Positions 1 through 30,251 are shown, counted from the stretch's first letter. The stretch is DNA of 32,000 nt from Nostoc sp. (GCF_036917515.1 NZ_JBALDE010000015.1:12584-44583); one strand, 5' to 3'. The notes: generated by a model not told the origin, from the sequence alone. Made by a program: numbers and translations.

Positions 1-3
1 CTC

Positions 4-669
4 ATGAGTTCCATCACTCAAACCCAACCTTTAGATGTACCCAGTGCGATCGCTAAACGTCGTGCCATCAAAACTTTTAAAACAGACCCCATCACCCCAG
101 AACTGCTCAAGCAACTGGTAGAGTTAACCGTGGCTGCACCCAGCAGCTATAATCTCCAGGACTGGCAAATTATTCTTGTGCAAGATGAAGCGCAAAAGAC
201 AGCACTCTCAGCAGCATCTTTTAATCAACAGCAAATTGTCCAAGCACCTGTAACCTTTGTCTTTGCCGCCGATCCTAACGCAGGCGAACAAAACTTGGCC
301 CCAATTCTAGAGCGGGGACTGGAAACTGGGGCATGGAATGAAGGCACAGTAAACTACTTTAAAACCGCCGTTCCACAATTTCAAGCAACGCTAGGCGACA
401 AGCGACGCGAATATGCGATCAAAGATGCGATCATTGCCGCTACCCATTTGGTGTTAGCGGCAGAAAGTCTGGGATTATCTACTTGTTTTATGAACGGTTG
501 GATTGAGGATCAGGTAAAACAAGTGATTGGTGCTGGGGAGAATTCAGATTTAGCGATCGCTGTTTTAGTTCCTGTTGGCTATGCAGCAGAATCACGCTTA
601 AATCCAGGTCGTTTGCCATTCTCCTCCAACGTCTCTGTAGACAGAATTGGTAATTTTTATGCAGGGTAG
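4..669 (+). CDS. nitroreductase family protein
   Basis: Full ORF starting at an ATG. The 221-aa product has nitroreductase-fold hallmarks (N-terminal RRAIKTF, APSSYNLQDWQ, C-terminal GY...R), recognised from memory. Confidence 0.85.
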   Translation: MSSITQTQPLDVPSAIAKRRAIKTFKTDPITPELLKQLVELTVAAPSSYNLQDWQIILVQDEAQKTALSAASFNQQQIVQAPVTFVFAADPNAGEQNLAPILERGLETGAWNEGTVNYFKTAVPQFQATLGDKRREYAIKDAIIAATHLVLAAESLGLSTCFMNGWIEDQVKQVIGAGENSDLAIAVLVPVGYAAESRLNPGRLPFSSNVSVDRIGNFYAG

Positions 670-688
670 CTTTCTCTAAATTGCGAAT

Positions 689-710
689 AGGGCATTGGGC
701 ATTGGGCATG
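689..710. repeat. heptamer tandem repeat (GGGCATT)x3, STRR-like
   Basis: Direct reading: tagggcattgggcattgggcatg. Confidence 0.8.
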
Positions 711-786
711 AGTCTTTGATACTAGTGAACAAGTCTTTGATACTCGCCGACGAGTCTTTGATACTCGTGAATGAGTCTTTGAACTC
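711..786. repeat. four copies of AGTCTTTGA(T/A)ACT spaced exactly 21 bp apart
   Basis: Copies start at 711, 732, 753 and 774, separated by variable 8-nt spacers. The array lies in the intergenic region upstream of the MFS gene. Confidence 0.85.
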
Positions 787-852
787 CACTCCCCTGCTCC
801 CCTGCTCCTCTGCCCCCTGCTCCCTGCTCCCTGCTCCCCCACTCCCCCCTCC
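787..852. repeat. C-rich short tandem repeats (CCCTGCT/CTGCTCC-type), STRR-like
   Basis: Reading cactcccctgctcccctgctcctctgccccctgctccctgctccctgctccccc. The complementary G-rich version occurs at 6350-6385. Confidence 0.75.
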
Positions 853-857
853 AAACC

Positions 858-2147
858 ATGTCCTTACCCTCCTTCCTAGCGCGTCGTTCGTTCCACTATG
901 GCTGGATCGTCGCGGGTTTAACATTCCTAGCCTTGCTGGTGGCAGCCGGAATCCGCTCTGCTCCTGGAGTTTTTATAGTGCCTCTGGAACACGAGTTTGG
1001 CTGGAGTAGAGCAACTATATCTTTGGCAATCTCGATTAACTTAGTACTCTACGGGTTGATTGGGCCTTTTGCCGCCACAGTAATGGAGCGGTTTGGCATT
1101 CGCTGGATGATGGTGTTCTCACTTGCTGTCATTGCGCTTGGTGTCGGTTTAACCACTTTCATGTCAGCTTCCTGGCAGCTAGTTTTGTTGTGGGGTGTAG
1201 TTGTCGGTTCTGGTAGCGGAGTTATTGCCCTAGTTTTGGGTGCTATTGTCGTCAATCGCTGGTTTTTTGAGAAGCGGGGTTTAGTTTTGGGCATCTTAAC
1301 TGCCAGTACAGCCACGGGGCAACTGGTATTTCTGCCGATGCTGGCCTCAATAGCCGATCGCTTTGGATGGCGAGCTGCGGCTCTGGCTCTGACTGGTGCA
1401 GCACTTCTAGTTATTCCTGCGATCGCAGCCTTTATGCGCGATCGTCCGGTAGATGTCGGTTTGCGAGCCTTTGGCGACAACAGCGAAACTGTAGAAGTGT
1501 TACAGCCGAAAGTCAATTCCATTACCTCCACTCTTAACGCTCTCTGGCTAGGAATGCGTAATCGAGACTTCTGGCTGTTATTTGGTAGCTTTTTTATCTG
1601 TGGCGCAAGCACAAATGGGTTAATTGGAACTCATCTAATTCCTGCTTGTATTGACCACAATATACCTGAAGTCAAAGCTGCTGGGCTTTTAGCAATTATG
1701 GGACTATTCGATTTTTTTGGAACTACTATGTCCGGCTGGCTATCTGACCGTTGGAACAATCGCTACTTATTGTTTTGGTACTACGGGTTGCGGGGTCTAT
1801 CTTTGATTTTCTTGCCCTTCAGTTTTAACTTTTCCTTCTATGGACTTTCCATTTTCGCCGTCTTCTATGGACTTGATTGGATTGCTACCGTACCACCGAC
1901 AGTACGTCTTGTTGCCAATGTCTTTGGTAAAGAAAATGTCGGCGTGATGTTCGGTTGGATTGTCGCAGGACACCAGCTTGGTGCAGCGACAGCAGCATTC
2001 GGAGCCGGAGTGTTGAGAACTTGGACAGGTAGTTATTTACAAGCGTTTATTTTATCAGGCGTTCTCTGTCTGATTGCCGCAGTTTGTGTACTACAAATTG
2101 GTCAAACTCCCACTAAGAGTAATTATTTTGTAGAGAAGAATTCGTAA
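858..2147 (+). CDS. MFS transporter
   Basis: The 429-aa ORF is hydrophobic throughout, with about 12 predicted TM segments in a 6+6 layout around a central loop (RDRPVDVGLRAFGD). Confidence 0.9.
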   Translation: MSLPSFLARRSFHYGWIVAGLTFLALLVAAGIRSAPGVFIVPLEHEFGWSRATISLAISINLVLYGLIGPFAATVMERFGIRWMMVFSLAVIALGVGLTTFMSASWQLVLLWGVVVGSGSGVIALVLGAIVVNRWFFEKRGLVLGILTASTATGQLVFLPMLASIADRFGWRAAALALTGAALLVIPAIAAFMRDRPVDVGLRAFGDNSETVEVLQPKVNSITSTLNALWLGMRNRDFWLLFGSFFICGASTNGLIGTHLIPACIDHNIPEVKAAGLLAIMGLFDFFGTTMSGWLSDRWNNRYLLFWYYGLRGLSLIFLPFSFNFSFYGLSIFAVFYGLDWIATVPPTVRLVANVFGKENVGVMFGWIVAGHQLGAATAAFGAGVLRTWTGSYLQAFILSGVLCLIAAVCVLQIGQTPTKSNYFVEKNS

Positions 2148-2364
2148 TTGTGCTCTCACCAAAAGCTTTGTCAGAGGGATAATAACCATTAATTGTATCA
2201 AAAGTAACCCTATATAGTAAGCGAATTAAAGGTTAGGACATAATGACAAGCGTGGATGTTAGGAATAGTAATGTTTTACCTCCTGCCTCCAGCAAAGCTG
2301 CCTTCTGCCTCCTGCTATAAATCAATTTTTGGTAATGGATGAAGCGATAAAAACCAAAAGTTAA

Positions 2365-2412
2365 ACAACGCTTTATAGGCACAGAAGTTTGTCTAAGCCA
2401 ATAAAGCGTTGT
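2365..2412 (-). terminator. hairpin (12-bp perfect stem, 24-nt loop) followed on the minus strand by a T-rich tract
   Basis: acaacgctttat (2365-2376) pairs with ataaagcgttgt (2401-2412). The minus-strand downstream sequence is ttaacttttggttttta. The large loop makes it atypical for an intrinsic terminator. Confidence 0.35.
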
Positions 2413-2546
2413 AAATTTAATAAGTTTATACTACGAGCATCTACACAAACAATGTACAAAAATTACCCATAAAAAGCAATGTAAAGCACACTCTAGTTAC
2501 GAGATTGTGTATGCTTCGCTTATTCCTTTTTCTGACATCTCAATTC

Positions 2547-2765
2547 TTAAAACTGAACGACCGATATCTCTCCATGCAAATCCAATTTACCATCCACAGG
2601 CAAAGGTACTGGTGACTTGGTCGTATCTACCGAAACTCCACCAACAATTGCCATTGAACCCGCATCGTCCAGTTCCTCAAATAATTCCAAATCTCCAAAA
2701 AGCTCTTGTCCCTTGTTGCTTGCAGTTGTATTGGATACAGCCTTTTGTTAGTTATTAAACAACAT
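2547..2765 (-). CDS. candidate RiPP-type precursor mini-ORF, interrupted by an in-frame TAA at codon 6 (possibly a pseudogene; internal ATG at 2654 would give 35 aa)
   Basis: SD AGGAGA, a 6-nt spacer and ATG at 2765. Translation: MLFNN*QKAVSNTTASNKGQELFGDLELFEELDDAGSMAIVGGVSVDTTKSPVPLPVDGKLDLHGEISVVQF*. It has an acidic helical leader and a GG site, and lies on the same strand 150 nt downstream of the kinase/HopA1 pair. Confidence 0.3.
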
Positions 2766-2918
2766 GTGAGTTCTCCTGTGTTTCTTTGGTTAAATTTTGT
2801 ATCTTTTTTATTCCTAATTAAAGTCTAGTGGGTAGACACTGCATTTCTATCTATCTTCGTTGGTAATTAATTACATAGTTTTTTCCACCCAAAGACAGTG
2901 AAAAACTTTCAACTACGA

Positions 2919-4055
2919 TTAGAACAAGCTTGTATAGATATCAGTTGAGTTGGCATTCAAATGCACATGCGATAAGTCGATATTCAAACGAGAAAACTGC
3001 TCTAAGACAGCTTTTATACGCCCACTTGCTGTATCAATCCTTTGCTCAGTAGCTTCTAGCAACCCATTGGCGACAATTTGACAGCGATTCATTCCAAAGC
3101 TTTCTTTGACAGCAAATTTTTGATCTGGTTCTTCAGCCAATCCCAACCCTGGTGCTAGCTGCAAGGTGAATAGCGGCACTTCTGACTTAAAATGCGATTC
3201 GTTCTGTTTGTAAACAGTTGTGATTACTTGCCTAATTCGGTCATAATAATTTTTCTCAAAATACAAAACTCCGGAATCATAGCGATGGTAGTCTTTTGGA
3301 TTGTATAAAACCTTAAAACTAAAAGGAATCGCCATCTGATTTAGCTGCTGCGTGAGACTTTCCATCACCGCAACAGCACCAGTTAAAGTCAAATTGAAAT
3401 AAATTCGCACTAATGAGAGTTTACCTTGATCTGACCGACTTTTTAACCCCTGATTGCCAACCGCCATGTAAAAGCCATTTTGCACTCGATTCTTAGGTAA
3501 AAGGACAGCAACTGCATCACCCACACTCGCCGCGTGTTCATTCGGTTGAAGATGGCGCGATTTCTCGATATGCAGCCTCAAATTATTCTTAGTGACTGCT
3601 AATGTACCATCAGTTTCTTCTCTAACAACAGACCAACCATAGTCAAAGTAGCCTTCTCCAAAATTACTTTGATGCAATTGCTCATAAAAGTCCATATCTA
3701 CCCCCAAATAAGTATTATTCTCCAAATCTAGGGGTAAATTATTTTTCTCTGCATCTAGTGCCAAAAATCGTCGCAGAGAACCGTTGTAATATATGCCGTA
3801 GAGAAAACCCCGCAATTGCAAACTCAGATATTTTTGCTGCATTTGCGGATTGAGTTTCTGAAAACGGGCAACTGCATCAACTGGCAATTCCAATGGTTTG
3901 TAATCGGGATGGCGAATCGAAAAATCCGCGCTCACTTCCACTTTATGAACAATATCTTCTAGAACAGACAGTAATTGCCCACTGACGCCAGCCTGAATTA
4001 AAGTTTGAGTAGAATCAGGATGCATAATTATTGGCAGAATTTTCTCAAAAAGCAC
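2919..4055 (-). CDS. HopA1-family (T3SS effector HopA1-like) protein, putative phospho-Ser/Thr lyase-like
   Basis: The 378-aa ORF has a GTG start at 4055, 6 nt after the upstream stop; an alternative ATG lies at 4025. The sequence (YKPLELP...LQLRGFLYGIYYNG) matches my memory of cyanobacterial proteins annotated as HopA1 family. Confidence 0.7.
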   Translation of the reverse strand: MLFEKILPIIMHPDSTQTLIQAGVSGQLLSVLEDIVHKVEVSADFSIRHPDYKPLELPVDAVARFQKLNPQMQQKYLSLQLRGFLYGIYYNGSLRRFLALDAEKNNLPLDLENNTYLGVDMDFYEQLHQSNFGEGYFDYGWSVVREETDGTLAVTKNNLRLHIEKSRHLQPNEHAASVGDAVAVLLPKNRVQNGFYMAVGNQGLKSRSDQGKLSLVRIYFNLTLTGAVAVMESLTQQLNQMAIPFSFKVLYNPKDYHRYDSGVLYFEKNYYDRIRQVITTVYKQNESHFKSEVPLFTLQLAPGLGLAEEPDQKFAVKESFGMNRCQIVANGLLEATEQRIDTASGRIKAVLEQFSRLNIDLSHVHLNANSTDIYTSLF

Positions 4056-4061
4056 GCAAGT

Positions 4062-5195
4062 TCAAGTTAATTCAACAGCAGTACCAAAAATCGTTGACAT
4101 TGACTGTTGTGGATTGCATAATAACGTCTTTGCAACCTGCATCATAGCAATACCCGTATTGTTAAAAGATTTTTGATGCTGAATTCTGGCCTGAATCTGT
4201 TGAATCAAAGCAAAACCCACAAATTGCACAACTCGCTGCCAGAAATCGGGGCGATGTTCAAAAATTTCGGGAAACGTCTTCTCATAAGCACTAGCTAATG
4301 CAACAATTGAAGGCTGAAGCTGTTCCAAAGGCGTTATCGCCAAGCCTAAAGATTCCTCAAGACTCAAAGACTTACTGATAACTAAGCTACCCAGCCAGAT
4401 AATTACATAGCTACAAATGAGAGTTCCTAAATCCATTGCTGGATCTCCCCAAGCACAACGTTCCCAATCAATCAACTGTATAATATTTGTACCGTGTTGC
4501 TGCCACTTGCTGTGCAAAAGGATATTATTCAGCTTCAGGTCATTGTGGGTAAGACAAGAGGAAGTAAAAGTGCTACCTAATTGGGCGATCGCTTGTCCCA
4601 AATCATCATACCGCTGATAGAGGGCAAAAAACCTCAACCCGTCATCTGGCACTGAACCAAAAATTTCCGGCGAAATCCTTTCCAACCTCTCGATAAAACT
4701 TTTTACAAAGTCAAAAGCAGATTTTTGAGAATTTTGCTCGAAAAAATCTTCATATTCTGAGCGGTTGAAAGTATCACGATGAATAGTTGCAAGAATTGTA
4801 CCAATTGCCGTACCGATTTCACTGTTGAAGCTATTTTCCTTTTGGTAAAAATCAATTAAATCGCGATAGTCATCTCTGTAGGTTTGGACAATAATGGAAT
4901 TCTCTCTGTCAAAATGCAGTACCTCTGGCAAAAATAAGCGTAGGTGATTCAGTTTTGAAAATTGCTGTAAAAATTCTTTCAGCAGCCACTCACCCAAAAA
5001 CTCACCTGCTGCTTTCCCCTGTTTATGTCGCTCTTGCTTAACCAGAAGTTTACTACTGTTATGAAAACTTACTAATAAGTTAAAGTTCTTAGCGAAAACT
5101 GGCTCTATCTTACTGGTTGCTCGTTCGGAATTATTGCATAAGTTATGCTCAACTAAATACTCGAAAACATTATGAGATTTTAACAGGAATGGCAT
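4062..5195 (-). CDS. aminoglycoside-phosphotransferase (APH)/protein-kinase-like phosphotransferase
   Basis: Catalytic loop LTHNDLKLNNILL (HxDxxxxN) and IDWERCAWGDPAMDL. The ORF extends to a TTG at 5222; the first ATG is at 5195. Confidence 0.8.
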   Translation of the reverse strand: MPFLLKSHNVFEYLVEHNLCNNSERATSKIEPVFAKNFNLLVSFHNSSKLLVKQERHKQGKAAGEFLGEWLLKEFLQQFSKLNHLRLFLPEVLHFDRENSIIVQTYRDDYRDLIDFYQKENSFNSEIGTAIGTILATIHRDTFNRSEYEDFFEQNSQKSAFDFVKSFIERLERISPEIFGSVPDDGLRFFALYQRYDDLGQAIAQLGSTFTSSCLTHNDLKLNNILLHSKWQQHGTNIIQLIDWERCAWGDPAMDLGTLICSYVIIWLGSLVISKSLSLEESLGLAITPLEQLQPSIVALASAYEKTFPEIFEHRPDFWQRVVQFVGFALIQQIQARIQHQKSFNNTGIAMMQVAKTLLCNPQQSMSTIFGTAVELT

Positions 5196-5427
5196 ACGTT
5201 TTTCTAACAAGTGCTTTGGCAAAAACTAAAATATTTTCTTATTCGTAATAATAATACCGAGAGAGCATCCCAATGCATATAAAATAGACGGATATGCTGT
5301 ACAGTAAGTATTGCTTAGTAAGCTTTCTGTCGGTGACTTTATCCTCGAACATCTAAAATAGAAGATGGATTTGAATACACATAGTCAGTTTCCTGTCAAT
5401 GCATAAGTCTTAAATATAAAACTTTCC

Positions 5428-6315
5428 ATGCCTATCCAAACTATTGGTATTTTAAGTCCGGGTGATATGGGACAAGCGATCGCAGCTGTTCTCAATCAAC
5501 ATGGATTAAAAACTATTGCCACCCTAAATGATCGCAGCGAACGAACTCGACAATTAGCAGCCGCAGCCAACATCCAAGATGTGGGTTCCCTCACACAATT
5601 GGTAATTGAATCTGATGTGGTGCTGTCAGTTCTAGTCCCCGCAGCGGCTACTCAAGCGGCGAAGCAAGTAGCTGAGGCGATCGGCAATGTGGGTAAATCT
5701 ATTCTCTACGTTGACTGTAATGCGATCGCACCCCAAAAAGTGATAAATATCGGTCAACTCATTGAATCAGTTGGGGGAACATTCGTAGATGCATCAATTA
5801 TTGGCCCACCACCACGAGTTCCCAATCGCACCCGCATTTACACTTCCGGAAAACAAGCAAGTCAACTCCTACAACTGCGAGATCATGGCTTAGATGTGCT
5901 GGTAATTAGTGATGAAATTGGTCAGGCTTCCGGGTTGAAAATGTCCTACGCCGCTTTGACAAAAGGACTTACAGCAATCGGCACAGAATTACTAATTGCA
6001 GCCCATCGTCTAGGTTTGGATAAGGAACTATGGGATGAAGTATCTAGTAGTCAAAAAGAACTTGCTAGCATCTTAACCCGTTCCATTCCATCGATGACAC
6101 CGAAAGCGCATCGGTGGATAGGAGAAATGGAAGAAATTGCCGAAACCTTTAAAGAGTTGGGTCTAACTGAGCGCATTTTTGACGGAGTAGCTGACGTTTA
6201 CCGTTTGGTAAAAGACACCTCCTTGGGTAAGGAAACACCAGAAGAGTCTAATCGCGATCGCCCCTTGGATGAAATCATTACAATCCTCTCCAACGAAGCA
6301 AGCTCGGACACTTAA
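5428..6315 (+). CDS. NAD(P)-dependent oxidoreductase (6-phosphogluconate/3-hydroxyisobutyrate dehydrogenase-like NAD-binding domain)
   Basis: N-terminal Rossmann motif IGILSPGDMGQAIA in a 295-aa full ORF. Confidence 0.7.
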   Translation: MPIQTIGILSPGDMGQAIAAVLNQHGLKTIATLNDRSERTRQLAAAANIQDVGSLTQLVIESDVVLSVLVPAAATQAAKQVAEAIGNVGKSILYVDCNAIAPQKVINIGQLIESVGGTFVDASIIGPPPRVPNRTRIYTSGKQASQLLQLRDHGLDVLVISDEIGQASGLKMSYAALTKGLTAIGTELLIAAHRLGLDKELWDEVSSSQKELASILTRSIPSMTPKAHRWIGEMEEIAETFKELGLTERIFDGVADVYRLVKDTSLGKETPEESNRDRPLDEIITILSNEASSDT

Positions 6316-6339
6316 TCTTGAGTATTTTATCGATGGGGA

Positions 6340-6445
6340 TTGGGGGAGATGAGAGAGCAAGGGAGCAGGGGAGCAGGGGAGAAGTTGCAGTAAGTTTTTC
6401 CCCTCCGCCCCTTTCCTCCTCTGCCCCTCTGCCTCCTGCCTCCAT
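6340..6445. repeat. G-rich STRR-like repeats followed by their C-rich complement (imperfect inverted repeat) between convergent genes
   Basis: gggagcaggggagcaggggagaag ... ccctccgcccctttcctcctctgcccctctgcctcctgcctcc. It could fold as a bidirectional terminator. Confidence 0.5.
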
Positions 6446-6446
6446 C

Positions 6447-9134
6447 CTAAATAGCTTTCATTGGCAGACTAACAACAAATGTCGCCCCCTTTCCAATTCC
6501 TGGACTTTCGACCGAGACTGTGCCACCGTGTAATTCTACCAAGTGACGGACGATCGCTAACCCTAATCCTAGTCCGCCATGCGATCGCGTGCTGGAACTG
6601 TCAGCTTGACGAAAGCGTTCAAATACATGGGGTAGGAATTCGGCAGCAATTCCCGCTCCCGTATCACTCACCCGAATTTGCACGTAAGATTCAATGCATT
6701 CTAATTGCACATCAACTCTGCCGCCCTTGGGTGTAAACCTGACAGCGTTGGAGAGCAAATTCCACACAACCTGTTGCAAGCGGTTGGCATCACCCACAAC
6801 TACCTCTACTTTCAGGTCGAATTTACATTTGATGCTAATCTCTTTAGCCTGGGCTGCTAGGTACATAGTATCGATTGCCGCCTCGACAACTGATACAAGT
6901 TCTATCTGCTCCATACTTAAATGAAGTGTGCCTCTAATAATCCGCGAGACATCGAGGACATCTTCAATCAGTTGCGCCAGGGATCTAGTATTACGCTCAA
7001 TTATCTCTAGTGCCTGGCCAGTAGTAGCCTGATCAAACTTGCGAGTTCTAAGTAACTGCGTCCAGCCCAGTATAGCGTTGAGGGGTGTACGGAGTTCGTG
7101 GGAAAGTGTGGCGAGAAACTCATCCTTCATGCGGTTTGCAGTTTCGGCATCAGCGCGTGCTGCTTGTTCGCGTTTAAGCAGTTCTTCGCGTTCTTGCTCT
7201 GCTTGCTTGCGATCGGTAATGTCAATCATGAATCCGTGTAGTAGCTGCGGTCCATGTTCATCCCGCACCACATTCACAATGTCATACAGCCAGACAACTC
7301 TGCCATCAGCAGCCAACATTCTGTATTCAAATTCGTAATTATTCAGTGATAGAGAAGATTCTTGGCAATACTCGATAGCCCACAGCTGATCTTCTGGATG
7401 CATGTATTTTGCCCAGAAATTATCGGTGTACCAGTCTGACAATGGATAGCCGAGAATCTCAACAGTTTGTGGCCCTACGTAGGTAAAATTCCCAGTAGTG
7501 GCATTTACTTCCCAAGGAATGACGCGGACTTTTTCAGTGAGTGTCTTTAAGCGTTTCTCGCTTTGTCTGAGCGCTACTTCTGCTAACTTGTGAAGTGTAA
7601 TATCTGTGATTAAAGCAACAAATCCTTCAACTTTCCCCTCCTGACTGAACTGGGGAATGTAAGTGACATTCACGTAATGATTTGTACCATCTTTATGGGG
7701 TAACTGAGTTTCGTAAGTTACTTGCTCTCCTGAAAGTACCGCTTCTACATGAGGAAGAATCGACTGATAAACCGACTCTCCCAAAATTTCTCTAATGTGT
7801 TTACCAGAAATTTCGCAAGCAGGAAGCCCAAACCAGTCTTCATATTCTTTGTTATTAAAACGATAACGCTGCTTCCCATCAACATAGCAAATCCGTACGG
7901 GCACAGCATTTGTAATTAAGCGCAGTTCATCTTCTTGTTGGCGCAGTGCTGTTTCTGCTCGTTTGTCTTCTGTGATGTCGCGTTGAGTTCCCCACGCTCT
8001 CACTAAAAGCCCATTTTCAACAATTCCCACCAGATTATTCAAAAAATATTTGGAATTACCTTGCTTATCTATTTCATGAGACTCGGCATCAATTAGTCGG
8101 TAGTTAGAACGGATAAAGTTACGCAGGTATGCAATATTATGTGGATCGGAGGCAACAAGAAAGTCTCCTAGTCTGACACCGATAATATCTTCGGCACGAG
8201 AACAGCCATACATCTGCGCCATAACATTGTTGCATTCTGCCAGGTAAACATATTGGTAAAAATGTTGAATTTGTTCATCTTCTGGACAATCTGCTGAAAT
8301 TGGTACTTCCAGTTCGATGCACCAAATACCTTCTGAACTCTGCTCTAAAAAAGTGCGGTAGCGTTCTTCGCTTTTGGAAAGGGCAAGCTCTGCTTGTTTG
8401 CGTTTGCTTAAATCAATTACAAAAGAGATAATATCACCTTGGTTATTTTCTAACAAAGCAGAACTTAACAGGATAGGAACGCGGCTGTGATCTTTGCGGA
8501 TGTATTCGTTCTCAAAGGGTTGACACACACCTTTAGCTGTGAGTTCTGCGTAGGCGTAGCCCGCCGTAGGCATCGCACTGTTGTTAGTTTCAATATATTC
8601 TGGTGGAATCATGTCGCGCCATCTGACTCGCCCTGCTAGCAAATCCTCCTGTGAATAACCTACCATTTCTAAAAAAGCATCATTAGCTTCTGCGATCGCC
8701 CCGTCCATATTGGCTACAATTACCCCAATAATGTTGGACTCTACCAACCTTTTAAACCTGCCTTCGCTCACCTGTAGTTTCTGCAAACTCGTTTGAAGAT
8801 GTTGTTTGGCAGTGCGTAATTCTAAGTTCAGCAAGTTAATAATTGTTGTCACCAGCACAAACAAGCCTAAGCGCACTATATTGTCTAGACTCGCAACCAA
8901 GAGCGAAAACACTGGTTCTAAGAAAAAGTAGCTGACGGCAAAAGTAGACAAAGCAGTAGCCAGTAACCCTGCTTCCATGCCGCCATACCAGGCACTAACC
9001 GCCACAGCAGCGAAAAACAGCAGGAAAATAGTTTGGTTCAGTAGTGGCTGTAGCAATAGTGTTAGTAGCAATACGCTACCAACAGTCAATAGTGCCACAG
9101 CATAGGGCGCTAGAAGGGAACGTATTCCTTTCAA
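6447..9134 (-). CDS. multi-PAS sensor histidine kinase with N-terminal membrane domain
   Basis: H-box SHELRTPLN and HATPase motifs (NLLSNAVRFT, DTGAGI, GGLGLGLAIV). There are several PAS-like segments and an N-terminal hydrophobic region. The TTG start is preceded by AAGGAGA. Confidence 0.9.
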   Translation of the reverse strand: MKGIRSLLAPYAVALLTVGSVLLLTLLLQPLLNQTIFLLFFAAVAVSAWYGGMEAGLLATALSTFAVSYFFLEPVFSLLVASLDNIVRLGLFVLVTTIINLLNLELRTAKQHLQTSLQKLQVSEGRFKRLVESNIIGVIVANMDGAIAEANDAFLEMVGYSQEDLLAGRVRWRDMIPPEYIETNNSAMPTAGYAYAELTAKGVCQPFENEYIRKDHSRVPILLSSALLENNQGDIISFVIDLSKRKQAELALSKSEERYRTFLEQSSEGIWCIELEVPISADCPEDEQIQHFYQYVYLAECNNVMAQMYGCSRAEDIIGVRLGDFLVASDPHNIAYLRNFIRSNYRLIDAESHEIDKQGNSKYFLNNLVGIVENGLLVRAWGTQRDITEDKRAETALRQQEDELRLITNAVPVRICYVDGKQRYRFNNKEYEDWFGLPACEISGKHIREILGESVYQSILPHVEAVLSGEQVTYETQLPHKDGTNHYVNVTYIPQFSQEGKVEGFVALITDITLHKLAEVALRQSEKRLKTLTEKVRVIPWEVNATTGNFTYVGPQTVEILGYPLSDWYTDNFWAKYMHPEDQLWAIEYCQESSLSLNNYEFEYRMLAADGRVVWLYDIVNVVRDEHGPQLLHGFMIDITDRKQAEQEREELLKREQAARADAETANRMKDEFLATLSHELRTPLNAILGWTQLLRTRKFDQATTGQALEIIERNTRSLAQLIEDVLDVSRIIRGTLHLSMEQIELVSVVEAAIDTMYLAAQAKEISIKCKFDLKVEVVVGDANRLQQVVWNLLSNAVRFTPKGGRVDVQLECIESYVQIRVSDTGAGIAAEFLPHVFERFRQADSSSTRSHGGLGLGLAIVRHLVELHGGTVSVESPGIGKGATFVVSLPMKAI

Positions 9135-9694
9135 TGTAGCTTCTCCTTTTATGCAGCTAGCTAAAGGATTATTCCCAAAATCAGCTACAAAATACGTAGG
9201 TGTAGCCCTTCGTAGACATCGCTCATCAACATTTATTATGCATCGGAAAAATACACACTTAAGCAGTTACTTGCTGCGATATCTAAAATAGTCAAGTTTA
9301 GATTTAGCCAATCTTCAATAAACTGATAATTATCGCTCTAATTATATATGTTTTATTTTTAAGTCTTTGTCAAAAAGTTTCTACTACAATACTAATTTTA
9401 AAAGCGTATAACTTGCCTTCTAATTGTGAACTTATCCAAAGAAAAAAAGCAATTCAACTCAAGCCAGCTATCAATATAATCTACGTCTGGAATTGCCATC
9501 TAGTTGGGTTTTGTCGGAATTAGTTGGATCAATCATGCACTTTTTGCGTTATTAGTAATCAATAGACTAGGGAATAGGCATAGTGCATGGGACATGGCAA
9601 ATAGAAATAATTACCAATGCCCAATCTTCAGTGCCCATTACCCCTTATCCCCAGAGGGGGCCCCACCTTCCCCAATGCCCAATGCCCAATAATC

Positions 9695-11275
9695 ATGGCT
9701 CGTACTCCTACATTAAATTTTGATCGTGGCACATTAATTTTGCATCCACCACCACGCGGCAAAGGTTGGATGGACTATGCTACGTGGGATGATAGAGTTG
9801 AAAAATTCCGCATTCCAGCAATTAGATATCGATCGCTAGTGGAAGCACTACAAGCGGAAGATGTGAATTTTATCGATGAGGCAAAGCAATTTTATCCTGT
9901 AGATTTGGTTCCTACTCTGGAAATGGAACCCTATCCCCACCAGACGGAGGCGTTAGCGGCTTGGAAACTAGCGGGTAGACAAGGGGTGGTTGTACTTCCG
10001 ACGGCAGCGGGAAAAACTTATTTAGCGCAAATGGCGATGCAGTCAACGCCACGCACGACGCTGATTGTAGTCCCAACTTTGGATTTAATGCATCAGTGGT
10101 ATGCACATTTAGTAGCGGCTTTCCCCGATGCTGAGGTGGGATTGCTAGGGGGTGGTTCGCGGGATAGAACAGCCATTTTAGTTGCAACTTATGATAGTGC
10201 CGCAATCCATGCTGAGACGTTGGGAAATCAATATGGCTTGATTGTTTTTGATGAATGTCATCATTTACCGACAGATTTTAATCGGGTAATTGCTGAATAT
10301 GCGATCGCACCTTATCGCTTGGGACTCTCCGCGACACCAGAACGCACCGATGGTAAACACGCTGACTTAAATATCCTCATTGGTCAAGAAGTATATCGCA
10401 AACGCGCTGAAGATTTGGCGGGGAAAGCGTTAGCAGAACATGAAATTGTTCAAATTAAGGTTAAGTTATCGCAACTTGAGCGGGAAAGATACAATCAGCT
10501 CATTCAAACTCGCAATGATTTTTTGAAGCAATCAAAGATTTCTTTGAGGAGTTTGCAAGGTTGGCAAATGTTCGTGCAAATGAGTGCGCGATCACAATTT
10601 GGACGTAGAGCAATGTTAGCGCATCGAGAAGCGAAAGATATCGCTTTGGGTACTGATGGAAAATTACGAATTCTAATTGATTTATTGGCAGAACATTATC
10701 CATCACGAATTTTGATTTTTACAGCAGATAATGCAACAGTTTACCGCATTTCTCAAGAGTTGTTAATTCCGGCAATTACTCATCAAACTCCTGTAAAAGA
10801 ACGGCATGAGATATTAACCAAGTTTCGGGAGGGTAAATATAATACTTTAGTTGCTTCTCATGTGTTGAATGAAGGGGTTGATGTGCCTGCGGCTTCTGTG
10901 GCAATTATTTTATCGGGGACGGGTTCGGCTAGGGAGTATACTCAGCGCTTGGGGAGGGTTTTACGGAAGGGGAATATCGAGAATAAGCAGGCGATTTTAT
11001 ATGAGGTAGTAGCGGAGGATACGAGTGAGGAGGGGACTTCGGCTAGGAGAAGAGGACAAGGGGACAAGGGGACAAAGGGGCAAGGGGAAAGGAAAGGGAA
11101 GTTACAGGTTGTGTATGGGAGTGGGAAGGAAAGGAGTTTGAAAGCTGCAGAACAGTTAGAAATTAATTATTCAACCGGAACAAAATTTAAAATCCAAAAT
11201 TTAGATGTTACCGACAGATTTACTGATGCATCGCCAAAACGGGGAGGAGATCATTCCGAAGAGACTGAAGATTGA
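9695..11275 (+). CDS. XPB/Rad25-like superfamily-2 DNA helicase (DEAD/DEAH box helicase)
   Basis: N-terminal FDRGTLILHPPP (XPB damage-recognition-like domain), Walker A LPTAAGKTYLA, motif II FDECHHL, motif III LSATPER, motif VI QRLGRVLR. ATG at 9695 is preferred over the ORF-track start at 9617, which runs through a heptamer repeat. Confidence 0.85.
   Translation: MARTPTLNFDRGTLILHPPPRGKGWMDYATWDDRVEKFRIPAIRYRSLVEALQAEDVNFIDEAKQFYPVDLVPTLEMEPYPHQTEALAAWKLAGRQGVVVLPTAAGKTYLAQMAMQSTPRTTLIVVPTLDLMHQWYAHLVAAFPDAEVGLLGGGSRDRTAILVATYDSAAIHAETLGNQYGLIVFDECHHLPTDFNRVIAEYAIAPYRLGLSATPERTDGKHADLNILIGQEVYRKRAEDLAGKALAEHEIVQIKVKLSQLERERYNQLIQTRNDFLKQSKISLRSLQGWQMFVQMSARSQFGRRAMLAHREAKDIALGTDGKLRILIDLLAEHYPSRILIFTADNATVYRISQELLIPAITHQTPVKERHEILTKFREGKYNTLVASHVLNEGVDVPAASVAIILSGTGSAREYTQRLGRVLRKGNIENKQAILYEVVAEDTSEEGTSARRRGQGDKGTKGQGERKGKLQVVYGSGKERSLKAAEQLEINYSTGTKFKIQNLDVTDRFTDASPKRGGDHSEETED
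11054..11101. repeat. G-rich short tandem repeat (GGGGACAA-type) inside the 3' end of the helicase ORF
   Basis: ggacaaggggacaaggggacaaaggggcaaggggaaaggaaagggaag, translated as GQGDKGTKGQGERKGK. Confidence 0.8.
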
Positions 11276-12419
11276 TAATAAAACTTCAGAGTTGGCGATT
11301 GAGTTAATTAATTATTTTCTATCAGCAGTGGGGAAAACTCAAGGTGTGCTTGAGCGACAACTGACTGATTTTGAAGGAGATTCTACAGATTATCGGCTGA
11401 AGCGAGGGTTAGCTTATATTCTCAAAAGCAGTTTTTGTACTTTTGAGGTGGTAAGTCCTCTGGAACCACAAATGTTAAGAGAACGAGTGTTTTCGTTGGC
11501 TGCAAAGTCTGTTTCTAGTCGAGAATCAACACAAGTTACTTTGAGTAAAATTGCTGATGAGTTAACTCAAGAACTTGAACGGGAAGTTTTATTGGAACAG
11601 GTTCGCAATGGACTATATGCTGATTTATCTGAAAATAAAATTTTGACTGTTTTTGATGCACCAACAGCGCCAGATTTATTAAATAGGTATAACTTATCTC
11701 AAGTACAGGGTGTGTTTTATAAAGCCAGTCAACTTGTATTAAATGCTCACCGGAATGTTCCGGGAGAGTATAAGTTGTTATTTCGCTATCTGAAATTGTT
11801 TCAATTGATGGCTTATATTGAGGGCGATGCTGACCACGGGTTTACAATTACGATAGATGGGCCGACGAGTTTGTTTAATCCTAGTACGCGATATGGGTTA
11901 GCGATCGCTAAACTTATTCCGGCTTTACTTCACGTTACTAAATGGAGTCTTTCTTCGATTCTCCAAACTCGTGATGCTTATACAAATACTTGGAAAACTG
12001 GGCGTTTTACTCTCAATTCTGAATGTGGTTTGGTATCCCACTATCCACCAGGAAAGCCCTACGATAGTATGTTAGAAGCATCCTTTGCTGATAAGTGGGA
12101 TGCGTTAAAAAGTGGTTGGGCGTTAGAGCGAGAAGTTGATTTGATCCCAATTCCTGGTAGTGTGATGATCCCTGATTTTCGCTTAGTGCATCCTGATGGA
12201 CGCACCTTCTTATTAGAAATTGTTGGTTATTGGCGACCTGAATATTTACAAAAGAAGTTTTCTCAGGTGCGGCGGGCTGGACGTGACGACTTAATTTTGG
12301 CAATTTCCGAGCGACTTAATTTAGAAAAGGCGGGAGTAAAATTAAATGATGTTCCCGCCAGAATTGTTTGGTTTAAAGATAAGTTATTGCCGAAAGCTGT
12401 GTTAGCTGTAATGGATTAA
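11205..12419 (+). CDS. DUF790 family protein (Bax1-like PD-(D/E)XK endonuclease partner of XPB)
   Basis: N-terminal MLPTDLL...GEEIIPKRL and C-terminal IPDFRLVHPDGRTFLLEIVGYWRPEYLQKK match my memory of DUF790/Bax1. The gene overlaps the helicase ORF by 71 nt. Confidence 0.8.
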   Translation: MLPTDLLMHRQNGEEIIPKRLKIDNKTSELAIELINYFLSAVGKTQGVLERQLTDFEGDSTDYRLKRGLAYILKSSFCTFEVVSPLEPQMLRERVFSLAAKSVSSRESTQVTLSKIADELTQELEREVLLEQVRNGLYADLSENKILTVFDAPTAPDLLNRYNLSQVQGVFYKASQLVLNAHRNVPGEYKLLFRYLKLFQLMAYIEGDADHGFTITIDGPTSLFNPSTRYGLAIAKLIPALLHVTKWSLSSILQTRDAYTNTWKTGRFTLNSECGLVSHYPPGKPYDSMLEASFADKWDALKSGWALEREVDLIPIPGSVMIPDFRLVHPDGRTFLLEIVGYWRPEYLQKKFSQVRRAGRDDLILAISERLNLEKAGVKLNDVPARIVWFKDKLLPKAVLAVMD

Positions 12420-12434
12420 TTAAGGAGAAATAAG

Positions 12435-12677
12435 ATGAAAAGTATAGAAACAATTGCAATAGTTACTAAAGATGGTAAAATTACAGCGCAAATACCATTG
12501 GATATTCCAGAGGGTGAACATCAGGTGGTAATAGTAATTGATGAAAAGCCATTGGCACAGAAAGTAGAGAATAAAGAAAAGCGTCCTCCTCTAAACTTTC
12601 CTGTAGATAATTATGGTTATTGGCCTGAGAATCTTTCTCTGAGACGTGAGGATATGTATGGTGATTGGGGTCGCTAA
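12435..12677 (+). CDS. putative antitoxin of a PIN-toxin pair
   Basis: An 80-aa ORF with SD AAGGAGA, located 16 nt after the DUF790 stop. It overlaps the start of the downstream PIN gene. Confidence 0.55.
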   Translation: MKSIETIAIVTKDGKITAQIPLDIPEGEHQVVIVIDEKPLAQKVENKEKRPPLNFPVDNYGYWPENLSLRREDMYGDWGR

Positions 12678-17325: not shown

Positions 17326-17625
17326 TTACAGGGTATCCATCAGCTCAAGAGTCGGCTCCTTGTTGAGGTCAATATTATCAATTACTGGTAGAGAATGTCC
17401 CAGCTTTAGCCCAAGCAAAATCCAGTCTTCCAGTGTTGAGCGTAATTCATCCTCACACTCGCGCAAAGTTGATGCAAAAGCTATCACTCCTTTGCAAACA
17501 GGAATTCTACCTGCAAATGTACCATCTTCTAACTTGTCATAAATTGCTTGAGCGTAGACGCAAAGCGGCTTGTCGTCAGACATCGCTCGATCAACATAGT
17601 CGCTCAAAATAAACCTTATCGCCAT
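17326..17625 (-). CDS. hicB: HicB-family antitoxin
   Basis: A 99-aa ORF. The YAQAIYDKLEDGTFAGRIPVCKGVIAFASTLRECEDELRSTLEDWI pattern is typical of the HicB N-terminal domain. Confidence 0.7.
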   Translation of the reverse strand: MAIRFILSDYVDRAMSDDKPLCVYAQAIYDKLEDGTFAGRIPVCKGVIAFASTLRECEDELRSTLEDWILLGLKLGHSLPVIDNIDLNKEPTLELMDTL

Positions 17626-17747
17626 GAAATCTCACGTTGTACTACCAGTTTAATCTTATGTTAAATGATGGTGTTTCGCCGATGAAGCGTCTACGCTCTA
17701 CTTTCAAGTCTAAATCGACAAGCGATCGCTTGGTTTAGAAATGAGCA

Positions 17748-18136
17748 TTACTCAAATAAATCAAATCCCTTTTCGTTTCTCAGCTTTCTGTCAAAAGTTG
17801 CTGTTAAACTACAACCATAATCTTGAGCAATCGTACCAATTAAATAATCAGAAAAATCTGCACTTCCCTGCTTAAATCGTTGTAATGCTTGATAAATTAC
17901 AGAACGATTTTCTAACTCAAACACTGAACATTGCAGCATCAAGTCTATGGTGTTACTAATTTCTTCTTTACTAAATTGATAAGGGTTCCCGCGCAAAACC
18001 CAGACTAATTCACAAAGAACTATATTAGCAACAAAACATTGCTCTTCCCTTTCGATAATTTCAGCAGCTTGCTTCCACTGCTTTTATCATCTTTTGTCAA
18101 GTAACGTACTAAAATATTTGTATCAAGTCCAATCAC
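17748..18136 (-). pseudogene. vapC: vapC (PIN-domain toxin) disrupted by a frameshift
   Basis: GTG at 18136 gives VIGLDTNILVRYLTKDD, then the frame runs into a stop. The +1 frame continues KQWKQAAEIIEREEQCFVANIVLCELVWVLRGNPYQ... to 17748. The break coincides with an A4 run (plus-strand T run 18082-18085). Confidence 0.7.
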
Positions 18137-29468: not shown

Positions 29469-30251
29469 CTAGCCGGCGACTTTAATCGGGCCTTCAACAG
29501 TTCCACTCATAAATTGTCTGATCAAGGGATGTTCTGTGTTGTATATTTCAGTAACTGTACCTTGCCACTGCACTTTACCTTCATAAAGAAATATAAGTCT
29601 ATCAGATGTACGGCGGATAGTGCTGTCCTGGTGGGTAACAACGGCATAAGTACCACAAACTCCATGTAAACATTGCAAGTTACGGATTAAATCTTCGATT
29701 ACCGTTGAGGCAATGGGATCGAGTCCGGCTGTTGGCTCGTCGTATAGTAGAACTTCTGGGGCTTCACTGGGAATATCGGGATTAGAGATAATCGCACGGG
29801 CAAAACTCACCCGTTTTCGCATTCCCCCGGAAAGTTCGGCTGGGTATTGGTCGCCTACTTCTGGCAAACCTACCATCTCCAATTTTTCTTGTACCAAATC
29901 TCGGATGCGCGATCGCGGCAGCTTTGAATTTTCATAAAGTAAAAATCCTACATTCTCGTCCACTGTCAGCGAATCAAATAGTGCCGCCTGCTGAAACACC
30001 ATACTAATGCCAACCTGCTGACCGTCATCCTCAATCAAACCCTCTCGCCGCACTCCTTTGACATAAATTTCTCCTTCATCGGGATTAGTTAACCCTGCTA
30101 TTACTCGTAAGATAGTTGATTTCCCAGTCCCTGATGGCCCAATAATCCCCAGTGATTCTCCCCGGTTAATAGTCAAGTCTATATTATCTAGAACTTTATG
30201 GTTACCAAAGGACTTAGAAACACCTTTCAGTTCAATCAATGGTTCAGTCAT
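29469..30251 (-). CDS. mlaF: ABC transporter ATP-binding protein (MlaF-like)
   Basis: Walker A GPSGTGKST, signature LSGGMRKR, Walker B LLYDEPTAGLD and an H-loop. Confidence 0.9.
   Translation of the reverse strand: MTEPLIELKGVSKSFGNHKVLDNIDLTINRGESLGIIGPSGTGKSTILRVIAGLTNPDEGEIYVKGVRREGLIEDDGQQVGISMVFQQAALFDSLTVDENVGFLLYENSKLPRSRIRDLVQEKLEMVGLPEVGDQYPAELSGGMRKRVSFARAIISNPDIPSEAPEVLLYDEPTAGLDPIASTVIEDLIRNLQCLHGVCGTYAVVTHQDSTIRRTSDRLIFLYEGKVQWQGTVTEIYNTEHPLIRQFMSGTVEGPIKVAG

Follow-up and report, generated by a model that had tools for sequence, protein, structure and literature searches.

Does a kinase gene followed by a HopA1-family gene and a small leader-like frame make up a complete pathway for a modified peptide, or is it what is left of a larger one? 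We address this question for a 32,000 nt stretch of Nostoc sp. DNA (NZ_JBALDE010000015.1:12584-44583, hereafter the window), in which these three elements lie together on the minus strand. An initial annotation had read them as a stand-alone locus for a ribosomally synthesized peptide that is modified post-translationally (RiPP), with the kinase and the HopA1-family protein acting as a split dehydratase on the small peptide. Hundreds of filamentous cyanobacteria carry the kinase/HopA1 pair inside peptide-export clusters for which the literature searched offers no characterized product. Our analysis indicates that the locus is quite probably a reduced and partly decayed copy of a RiPP/bacteriocin cluster found in cyanobacteria, one with a two-protein LanK/LanY-type Ser/Thr dehydratase.

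A genome scan for relatives of the HopA1-family protein (one genome per species) returned 466 confirmed loci, and the comparisons below use the best 80 of the 466. The kinase gene is directly upstream of the HopA1 gene in 79 of the 80 loci examined, and the closest homologues of the pair are all cyanobacterial. The window belongs to a subclade (81-92% identity) together with Nostoc P14320 (L001), Scytonema NUACC26 (L002), Tolypothrix campylonemoides (L003), a JGI genome (L085/L086), and remnants in Scytonema HK-05 (L082/L083) and Tolypothrix VBCCA 56010 (L084). The closest relative is L001, whose kinase and HopA1-family protein are 91% and 92% identical to those of the window. Pairs of the main clade, 63-70% identical to the window enzymes, range across Nostocales, Moorena, Okeania, Trichodesmium, and Coleofasciculus. 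The elements of the window module are as follows.

4062-5195, minus strand: LanK/LxmK-like APH-fold Ser/Thr kinase gene, intact (377 aa; ATG 5195, stop TGA 4064-4062)
2919-4025, minus strand: LanY/LxmY-like HopA1-family phospho-Ser/Thr lyase gene, assigned by homology, intact (368 aa; ATG 4025, stop TAA 2921-2919)
2772-2777, minus strand: Shine-Dalgarno-like AGGAGA, 6 nt 5' of the precursor ATG, read from the sequence
2547-2765, minus strand: precursor-peptide pseudogene (ATG 2765; TAA 2750-2748 as codon 6; stop 2549-2547)
2343-2466, minus strand: conserved 3' flank of the module with a stem-loop (2412-2365) and T-rich tail, 83% identical to L001:7483-7606

The Enzyme Pair Is Intact and Distantly Related to LanK/LanY

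The initial annotation gave the two open reading frames (ORFs) as 386 and 378 aa. Both exist but are maximal frames: homologues of the kinase begin at ATG 5195 (M1 is invariant in 19 homologues), and those of the HopA1-family protein, including a 100%-identical 368-aa entry, start at ATG 4025. The kinase stop codon (TGA 4064-4062) and a GTG at 4055 had also been taken as a sign of translational coupling. Although both codons are present, the homologue-based starts put the genes 36 nt apart, as in related loci, and so coupling is not supported. The two genes form one operon.

The HopA1-family assignment of the downstream protein was borne out by its match to Pfam PF17914 (E 8.8e-59) and by its similarity to LxmY. 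The lexapeptide dehydratase LxmKY has been solved as a heterodimer (9DK1; PMC12141560), of which chain 9dk1_B is the lyase, LxmY, as identified through the same paper; phmmer matched the window protein to this chain with E 1.7e-7. The three best PDB matches of its AlphaFold (AF2) model, which was built with 17 homologues and has a pLDDT of 70.6, were all LxmY (9dk1_B: E 4e-14, TM 0.59/0.67, ~355 aligned columns), followed by Pseudomonas syringae HopA1, the lyase domains of LanKC proteins, and OspF. The fold resemblance to HopA1 itself, an effector of the type III secretion system (T3SS), was weaker (4rsx, E 7.5e-5; 4rsw, E 1.4e-4; TMq 0.38-0.40), and no T3SS genes were seen in the 32-kb window; we take the label "T3SS effector HopA1" to be an annotation inherited from the Pfam family.

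Four residues of the HopA1-family protein (R207, K238, R248, and Y255) are invariant in 17 cyanobacterial homologues and align with the RRIF, AKVL, RRD, and LY segments of LxmY. They are spaced by 31, 10, and 7 residues, and the corresponding residues of CaoY (R187, K219, R229, and Y236) by 32, 10, and 7. Dehydration by CaoK/CaoY has been reconstituted in vitro, and mutagenesis of CaoY has shown that elimination requires R187 and K219, with a contribution from R229; Y236 is the conserved catalytic tyrosine (PMC9486802).

The kinase carries the HNDLKLNN and IDWE motifs named in the initial annotation, and H217, D219, and N224 of the first and D243 of the second are invariant in 19 homologues. 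It matches Pfam APH (E 1.8e-10), and its best NCBIfam match is LxmK (NF038156, E 5.2e-26, model positions 25-345 of 347), with a score of 91.5 bits against an equivalog cut-off of 315 bits. Phmmer and profile searches of the PDB (E<=0.01) with the kinase did not retrieve any chain from the LxmKY entries 9dk1-9dk3. The AF2 model of the kinase is of poor quality (pLDDT 56.7, and below 50 in the catalytic region), and because of this low confidence we give little weight to its fold matches, the top ones being LxmK (9dk1_A/9dk2_A, E 7e-4). The link between the kinase and LxmK thus rests only on the NCBIfam model and a weak fold match. Because the kinase falls far below the equivalog cut-off and LxmK is a weak fold match, the pair is best regarded as a distant relative, rather than an orthologue, of the LanK/LanY dehydratases.

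Relative to L001, dN/dS is 0.37 for the kinase and 0.48 for the HopA1 gene, and other subclade pairs fall between 0.27 and 0.45. The window enzymes display no rate acceleration or extra nonsynonymous divergence when L085 is used as the outgroup. Both genes are intact and evolving under weak purifying constraint.

The Small Frame Appears to Be a Broken Member of a Precursor Family

The small frame lies ~150 nt downstream of the HopA1 gene. The strong Shine-Dalgarno sequence (2777-2772) and the ATG at 2765 ascribed to it are both there, and the ribosome-binding region is conserved as ACAGGAG in L001 and as ACAGGAA in L002 and L003. The frame reads MLFNN, a stop codon, then QKAVSNTTASNKGQELFGDLELFEELDDAGSMAIVGG up to the cleavage site and VSVDTTKSPVPLPVDGKLDLHGEISVVQF beyond it; the leader ends at a double-glycine (GG) site at 2642-2637, and the 29-codon core occupies 2636-2550. 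The GG leader and 29-residue core that had been proposed are thus present, but the frame is not an open gene, a defect at which the initial annotation hinted only by mentioning a "stop repaired" construct. Codon 6 is TAA, a single C to T change (CAA to TAA) at a position where four orthologues have CAA or AAA.

Intact orthologues of the frame occupy the same position in L001, L002, L003, and L085/L086, that is, in 5/5 subclade loci with an intact HopA1 gene. Their leaders follow the consensus M..NQQKAV.NTT.ASKG.ELFGNWELS[DE].L.D..L....GG. Codon differences within ELFGNWELS are synonymous among the orthologues (GGC/GGG/GGA and TCT/TCA), which argues that the leader is under coding constraint. 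The ELFGNWELS[DE] motif, elsewhere invariant, differs in the window at three of its nine residues.

The cores behave differently. Cys is absent from those of the window and of L001, L002, L003, and L085, which cannot be aligned with one another, and conservation returns in the 3' flank. Compared with L001, the window DNA is 93% identical from the start of the kinase gene as far as base 2636, the first base of the core immediately after the GG codons; identity is then lost, and resumes at 83% across the 3' hairpin region. Likewise, the enzymes of L002 and L003 share 95-96% identity and their leaders are nearly the same, with unrelated cores between conserved flanks. On this evidence the core behaves as a replaceable cassette. 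Taken at the level of sequence, the small frame represents a real precursor gene family whose window member is broken.

Two downstream starts were considered as a means of rescue and rejected. The first in-frame start past the TAA, TTG 2690, has a GGAG only 2 nt upstream and would drop the N-terminal half of the leader including the ELF motif, and ATG 2657-2655 (Met at -6) would leave a six-residue leader. With the TAA at codon 6 and no downstream start that keeps the leader, the window locus as it stands probably makes nothing from its own precursor.

The hairpin noted at 2365-2412 was confirmed as an inverted repeat (2365-2385/2392-2412) with 21-nt arms and a T-rich tail. It folds with -24.5 kcal/mol (z = -6.7; 0/200 shuffles fold as well), is conserved in L001, and is likely to be the terminator of the operon. 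A consensus terminator scan made no call at 2365-2412, probably because the inner stem and loop fall outside the rules of the tool. Rfam gave no match in window positions 1-7000 or in four related loci.

The Module Has Probably Been Separated from Its Exporter Genes

Similarity between the window and L001 is confined to 5196-2343, its two limits being the start codon of the kinase gene and ~2343. No direct or inverted repeats of the kind left by mobile elements were found at the breakpoints (~5200 and ~2343). In L001, the module lies between a divergent ATP-binding cassette (ABC) transporter gene (909 aa) and a convergent gene for an ABC exporter with a C39 peptidase domain (C39-ABC, 769 aa), which is followed by HlyD (573 aa; the three sizes are those of the L085 orthologues). 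L085 has the same gene set with insertion sequence (IS)/transposase-like ORFs interposed, and the exporter cassette (ABC, C39-ABC, HlyD) also surrounds the remnants in L082 and L084. The ancestral architecture thus appears to have included exporters.

The 32-kb window contains no C39-peptidase ABC exporter, HlyD, or accessory ABC protein, and its only ABC-like match is an ATPase at 29469-30251 that adjoins an MlaD gene. Profile scans of the window agreed with the initial annotation that it holds no cyclase, C39 exporter, or protease. It also holds no other GG-leader ORFs, and neither the window nor the subclade loci have a second APH-like gene. The description of the locus as stand-alone does not hold as an original state: the closest relatives flank the module with exporters, and the similarity of the window to them breaks exactly at the module ends, so the isolation is secondary.

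Decay of the enzyme genes was also observed elsewhere in the subclade. In Scytonema HK-05, HopA1 is reduced to residues 1-110 and a 25-residue remnant (L082:11404-11733, 12482-12556), and in Tolypothrix VBCCA 56010 (L084:10001-11098), HopA1 is absent and the C-terminal end of the kinase is lost; both loci keep the exporter cassette. Decay thus seems to be common in the subclade. Scytonema HK-05 has in addition two GG precursors between the C39-ABC and HlyD genes (L082:16629-16835, 17620-17907), whose leaders (..KEWEGELDDADLTAVSGG) correspond to the C-terminal half of the subclade leader and lack the KG.ELFGN motif. These leaders would fit a modular organization, with one half recognized by the exporter and the other by the enzymes, in a genome that has lost its lyase. 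In L001, a 196-bp HopA1 fragment (L001:7829-8024; 93% identical to window 3208-3403) is duplicated downstream of the precursor.

Around the module, the window has the following genes.

4-669: nitroreductase
858-2147: major facilitator superfamily (MFS) transporter
5428-6315: oxidoreductase

The suggestion that the oxidoreductase or the MFS transporter plays an accessory role found no backing, as neither gene is near any homologous pair; the nitroreductase was dismissed as an accessory gene on the same ground.

These observations bear on the view that the three genes form a functional, self-contained RiPP locus, with a TAA that is a sequencing or assembly error or is bypassed, and with export by a distant transporter or the adjacent MFS protein. 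The strong Shine-Dalgarno sequence and ATG, the leader, GG site, and terminator that continue intact past the stop, and the intact enzymes are all compatible with it. We nevertheless consider it improbable: the change is a single clean C to T in a codon for which four orthologues have CAA or AAA, no plausible start would retain the leader, none of the related loci has the MFS or the oxidoreductase gene, and the processing of GG leaders falls to C39 ABC exporters, which are found beside the module in L001, L085, L082, and L084.

Main-Clade Clusters Share a Candidate Leader Element

The initial annotation had suggested surveying related pairs for a conserved adjacent small ORF. Orthologous pairs do carry an adjacent small GG-leader ORF with a hypervariable core, in 5/5 subclade loci and in 67/79 loci of the main clade. 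Main-clade loci have the typical make-up of cyanobacterial clusters for GG-peptide export and contain a peptidyl-prolyl isomerase (PPIase)/SurA-like gene (66 loci), HlyD (62 loci), an ABC transporter, and several precursor families. Precursors directly downstream of HopA1, usually on the same strand, make up what we call family A (121 distinct sequences in 67/79 loci, 1-6 per locus), with the leader MA.I.I..L...G..LF.D.ES.L.EL...E.....GG. Ser and Thr together account for 20.1% of family-A cores, compared with 11.8% of the background, and 0/121 cores lack both. Cys occurs in 45% of the cores; position 2 is Ser/Thr in 44%, frequently in the form x-[S/T]-P. The main-clade cores thus resemble dehydration substrates. 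The conserved Ser of the leader (DSES/ELS) was also considered as the true modification target and rejected, as it is present in only ~60% of family-A leaders.

The subclade and family-A leaders are only distantly related (hhalign Prob 88.9%, E 2.4e-6, over the C-terminal 27 columns). The sole element common to both is G.ELF.[D/N].E (G-x-E-L-F-x-[D/N]-x-E), and this element is absent from the Nif11-type leaders and from a third leader family of the same clusters. Because it occurs in both enzyme-linked leader families and not in the other two, we infer that it is a candidate enzyme-recognition element.

This shared element also bears on the possibility that the window pair has been retained for action in trans on GG-leader precursors elsewhere, such as those of a main-clade cluster that has an exporter of its own, the dead local precursor being irrelevant. 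Both enzyme genes are intact with all catalytic residues present and no rate acceleration, G.ELF.[DN].E is common to both leader families, and copies from the subclade and from the main clade coexist in at least three genomes: Nostoc P14320 (L001, L028), Tolypothrix VBCCA 56010 (L011, L084), and Calothrix NIES-2098 (two HopA1 proteins). Action in trans would, however, need a second cluster outside the 32-kb window analyzed, and a main-clade cluster would bring its own enzyme pair. In addition, similarity ends at the kinase start codon, so that the native upstream region has not been retained and expression is uncertain. We regard this explanation as rather doubtful, and the decay of a once complete cluster as the better account.

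In six distinct main-clade loci there is a second, APH-like paralogue that shares 35-39% identity with the window kinase; the positions are as follows.

Second APH-like paralogues: L018/L019:9004-10146, L030:8453-9583, L034:2244-3386, L045:8877-10034, L063:2133-3266, L076:3272-4291

NCBIfam scans of three of the six matched LxmK (E 3e-8 to 1e-15). Immediately upstream of each paralogue is a family-A precursor whose core contains Cys and, in most cases, is rich in it. The catalytic loop of the L030 paralogue is HNNLLLNK (HNDLKLNN in the kinase), and this protein looks like a pseudokinase. This K-Y-A-X layout parallels the LanX cyclase of class V, and the cyanobacterial loci that have it may encode true class V lanthipeptides.

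A further alternative is that the pair does not modify peptides at all and is, for example, a protein phospho-lyase or a regulatory module that is next to GG peptides by chance. For a tailoring enzyme, the conservation of the pair is unusually high (63-70% identity from Nostocales to Coleofasciculus), and published core logos contain no conserved Ser, Thr, or Cys (PMC8153245). Against this stand the family-A precursors, found in 67/79 loci and usually directly downstream on the same strand; their enrichment in Ser and Thr to 20%, with no core free of them; the six loci that add a pseudokinase paralogue and Cys-rich cores, mirroring class V LanX; and the finding that 96% of bacterial HopA1 proteins are paired with a phosphotransferase, in RiPP-like clusters (PMC8153245). 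We consider an incidental association very unlikely.

The main-clade clusters include further small genes. Upstream of the kinase, many loci have Nif11-leader precursors (TIGR03798, E 4.5e-15) with cores that repeat PLYGV[IV], and these are accompanied by further genes; example positions from the set are listed here.

Nif11-leader precursors and accompanying genes: L067:2842-3177, L013:11716-12978, L059:3910-4347

Alongside these precursors are genes for a radical-SAM/SPASM protein (25 loci) and for a 145-aa protein that is rich in Cys and matches nothing in Pfam or NCBIfam (38 loci), and the set is probably a separate RiPP pathway that uses the same exporter. The third precursor family (e.g., L059:3470-3760, L014:~3631) has the leader ..LIDNAVNNA[LV]ARRN..(E)DALLTLSDEEMANVAGG and cores with ..IIAGGI.., most of which also have ..P[IV][TI]CG[LI]IAQ. 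More than 10 loci have a conserved frame of ~65 codons (VPGRMWRLRVTIRSMERRIVSLVLGAAIASRSQLSFASCSGVMLKF..) ~700-1300 nt downstream of HopA1 (e.g., L009:~7804, L026:~7918, L036:~8328, L059:~7795). This frame has no Rfam match and may be the strand antisense to a conserved family of small minus-strand ORFs (178 aa, 9 loci).

A Model for the Intact Cluster and for the Window

By homology with CaoKY and LxmKY (PMC9486802, PMC12141560), the kinase and the HopA1-like lyase of an intact cluster would form a complex and bind the precursor leader through G-x-E-L-F-x-[D/N]-x-E. The kinase would phosphorylate Ser/Thr of the core with ATP as the donor, and the lyase would β-eliminate the phosphate by means of its Arg/Lys/Arg/Tyr set to give dehydroalanine or dehydrobutyrine. 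The C39-peptidase ABC exporter, together with HlyD and the second ABC protein, would then cleave after Gly-Gly and export the peptide. As the subclade cores have no Cys and there is no cyclase, the product of the subclade would be a linear dehydropeptide rather than a lanthipeptide, and the earlier suggestion to that effect was a fair one. The window retains only the 2.85-kb module (kinase, lyase, precursor, and terminator), probably moved or cut away from the exporter genes, and its enzymes may be recently orphaned or active in trans. The proposal that the pair acts on the small peptide therefore holds in part: the enzyme identities and the precursor family are supported, but the local precursor carries a nonsense mutation.

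Several points weigh against this model. The chemistry is extrapolated from actinobacterial enzymes that are ~20% identical, the kinase is far under the LxmK equivalog cut-off and has a low-confidence structural model, and the literature searched contains no characterized or dehydrated product of any cyanobacterial kinase/HopA1 cluster. A dN/dS of 0.3-0.5 represents only weak constraint on the enzymes, and intact enzymes beside a dead precursor are odd unless the decay is recent or the enzymes act on other precursors. The window leader still matches the generic G.ELF.D.E, and its substitutions alone do not prove that recognition has been lost. Lastly, the TAA is also present in the Logan assembly of SRR28386271, which is identical to the window across the kinase, HopA1, and MFS genes, and NCBI also lists the HopA1 protein from a Nostoc metagenome-assembled genome (MAG). 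The window, the Logan assembly, and the MAG may share one sample, and a base-call or assembly error at the TAA is possible.

A broader proposal can be put forward only tentatively. Cyanobacterial LanK/LanY pairs might make undescribed, exported, linear dehydroamino-acid peptides by way of G.ELF.[D/N].E, with the subclade as a "dehydratase-only" form in which the core cassette is swapped from GG to stop, and with the window pair active on precursors elsewhere.

The family is tractable and offers several handles: the G.ELF.[D/N].E leader candidate, the x-[S/T]-P core start of the main clade, and the K-Y-A-X minority architecture. The Cys-free, single-precursor subclade is the simplest system for reconstitution, and L001 or L085 are better study loci than the window. 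The window itself illustrates cluster decay and fragmentation, and it cautions that what looks like a minimal, "stand-alone" RiPP locus can turn out to be a remnant.

Other Features of the Window

The remaining window genes include a PAS/histidine kinase, an XPB-like helicase with DUF790, PIN, NB-ARC/TPR, Rieske, Clp ATPase, and MlaD genes. At 9617-12419, an XPB-type helicase (XPB_DRD, ResIII, Helicase_C) overlaps the next gene, which encodes a DUF790 protein (E 9e-155); the pair presumably resembles the archaeal XPB-Bax1 helicase-nuclease. Genes for PIN, PD-(D/E)XK, and NB-ARC/TPR STAND proteins lie close by. Between the nitroreductase and MFS genes, the spacer (670-860) is repeat-rich, with the translated frames SLILVNKSLILADESLILVNESL and GAGSREQGAEEQGSRG, and looks like short tandem cyanobacterial repeats.

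Comparison with Known Systems

The nearest characterized systems are the class V LanK/LanY pairs (LxmK-LxmY and CaoK-CaoY). In both these and the window, an APH-fold kinase and a HopA1-domain lyase are encoded side by side, and the precursor has a leader and a Ser/Thr-containing core; LxmY and LxmK are the best PDB matches, and the Arg/Lys/Arg/Tyr spacing of CaoY is nearly identical. However, sequence identity is only ~20%, with the kinase far below the equivalog cut-off, and the window and its subclade lack a LanX-type cyclase, a LanD decarboxylase, an F420 reductase, and core Cys. The window leader is of the GG type cut by a C39 ABC exporter, whereas the actinobacterial leader is of type A. 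On the strength of these differences (no LanX, LanD, or core Cys, and a GG leader), we describe the window system as a putative LanKY-like dehydratase and not as a lanthipeptide pathway. The dehydratases of the thioamitides and kintamdin (TvaC/TvaD, TsaC/TsaD, and KinD/KinC) are a second parallel, as there too a phosphotransferase and a HopA1-like protein install dehydroalanine (Dha) or dehydrobutyrine (Dhb) in a RiPP that is not a classical lanthipeptide. Those clusters differ in their YcaO/TfuA, decarboxylase, and other tailoring genes and in their non-GG leaders, none of which is in the window. A 2026 preprint on nostolanthin was considered as a description of this system and set aside, because its text, as searched, mentions neither class V nor any lyase, phosphotransferase, or HopA1 protein, and its sole kinase is a sensor histidine kinase.

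Wang, Fewer, and Sivonen (2011) classified cyanobacterial export clusters (PMC3140520). Their groups II and V resemble the orthologous loci in having GG leaders with C39-ABC and HlyD, group V also in having a second ABC protein without a peptidase domain, and groups I, II, and VI share a SurA-like rotamase with the main-clade loci. In contrast, the window lacks every transport component. The words "kinase" and "phosphotransferase" occur nowhere in the text of that paper, and the HopA1 protein is not mentioned (PMC3140520).

The closest published relatives are the clusters that have been mined from genomes. Eyles et al. (2021) collected 1,340 HopA1 proteins, 96% of them paired with a phosphotransferase, and defined a "Family 1A" of 570 peptides from 183 biosynthetic gene clusters, found in Cyanobacteria only, with a conserved GG leader and variable C-termini (PMC8153245); Liang et al. 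(2022) listed cyanobacterial "type-B" candidate LanAs (PMC9486802). The initial annotation was aware of no such system characterized in Nostocales, and this agrees with the literature searched, but the clusters themselves had already been mined in 2021-22 (PMC8153245, PMC9486802). Our family A presumably corresponds to "Family 1A" (PMC8153245). The likeness to the Family 1A/type-B clusters extends to a cyanobacterial HopA1 protein with a phosphotransferase, short GG-leader precursors with a variable C-terminus, and partly conserved clusters. The window differs in belonging to a rare paralogous subclade with a divergent leader (..NQQKAV.NTT.ASKG.ELFGNWELSD..) and a single precursor, in which the cores are Cys-free and non-hydrophobic and a three-gene transport cassette replaces the PPIase/HlyD/ABC set; the window copy, moreover, is without exporter genes and without an intact precursor reading frame. 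The idea drawn from the window was thus sound but had been anticipated by genome mining, and the window is a degenerate member of a rare subclade of these clusters.

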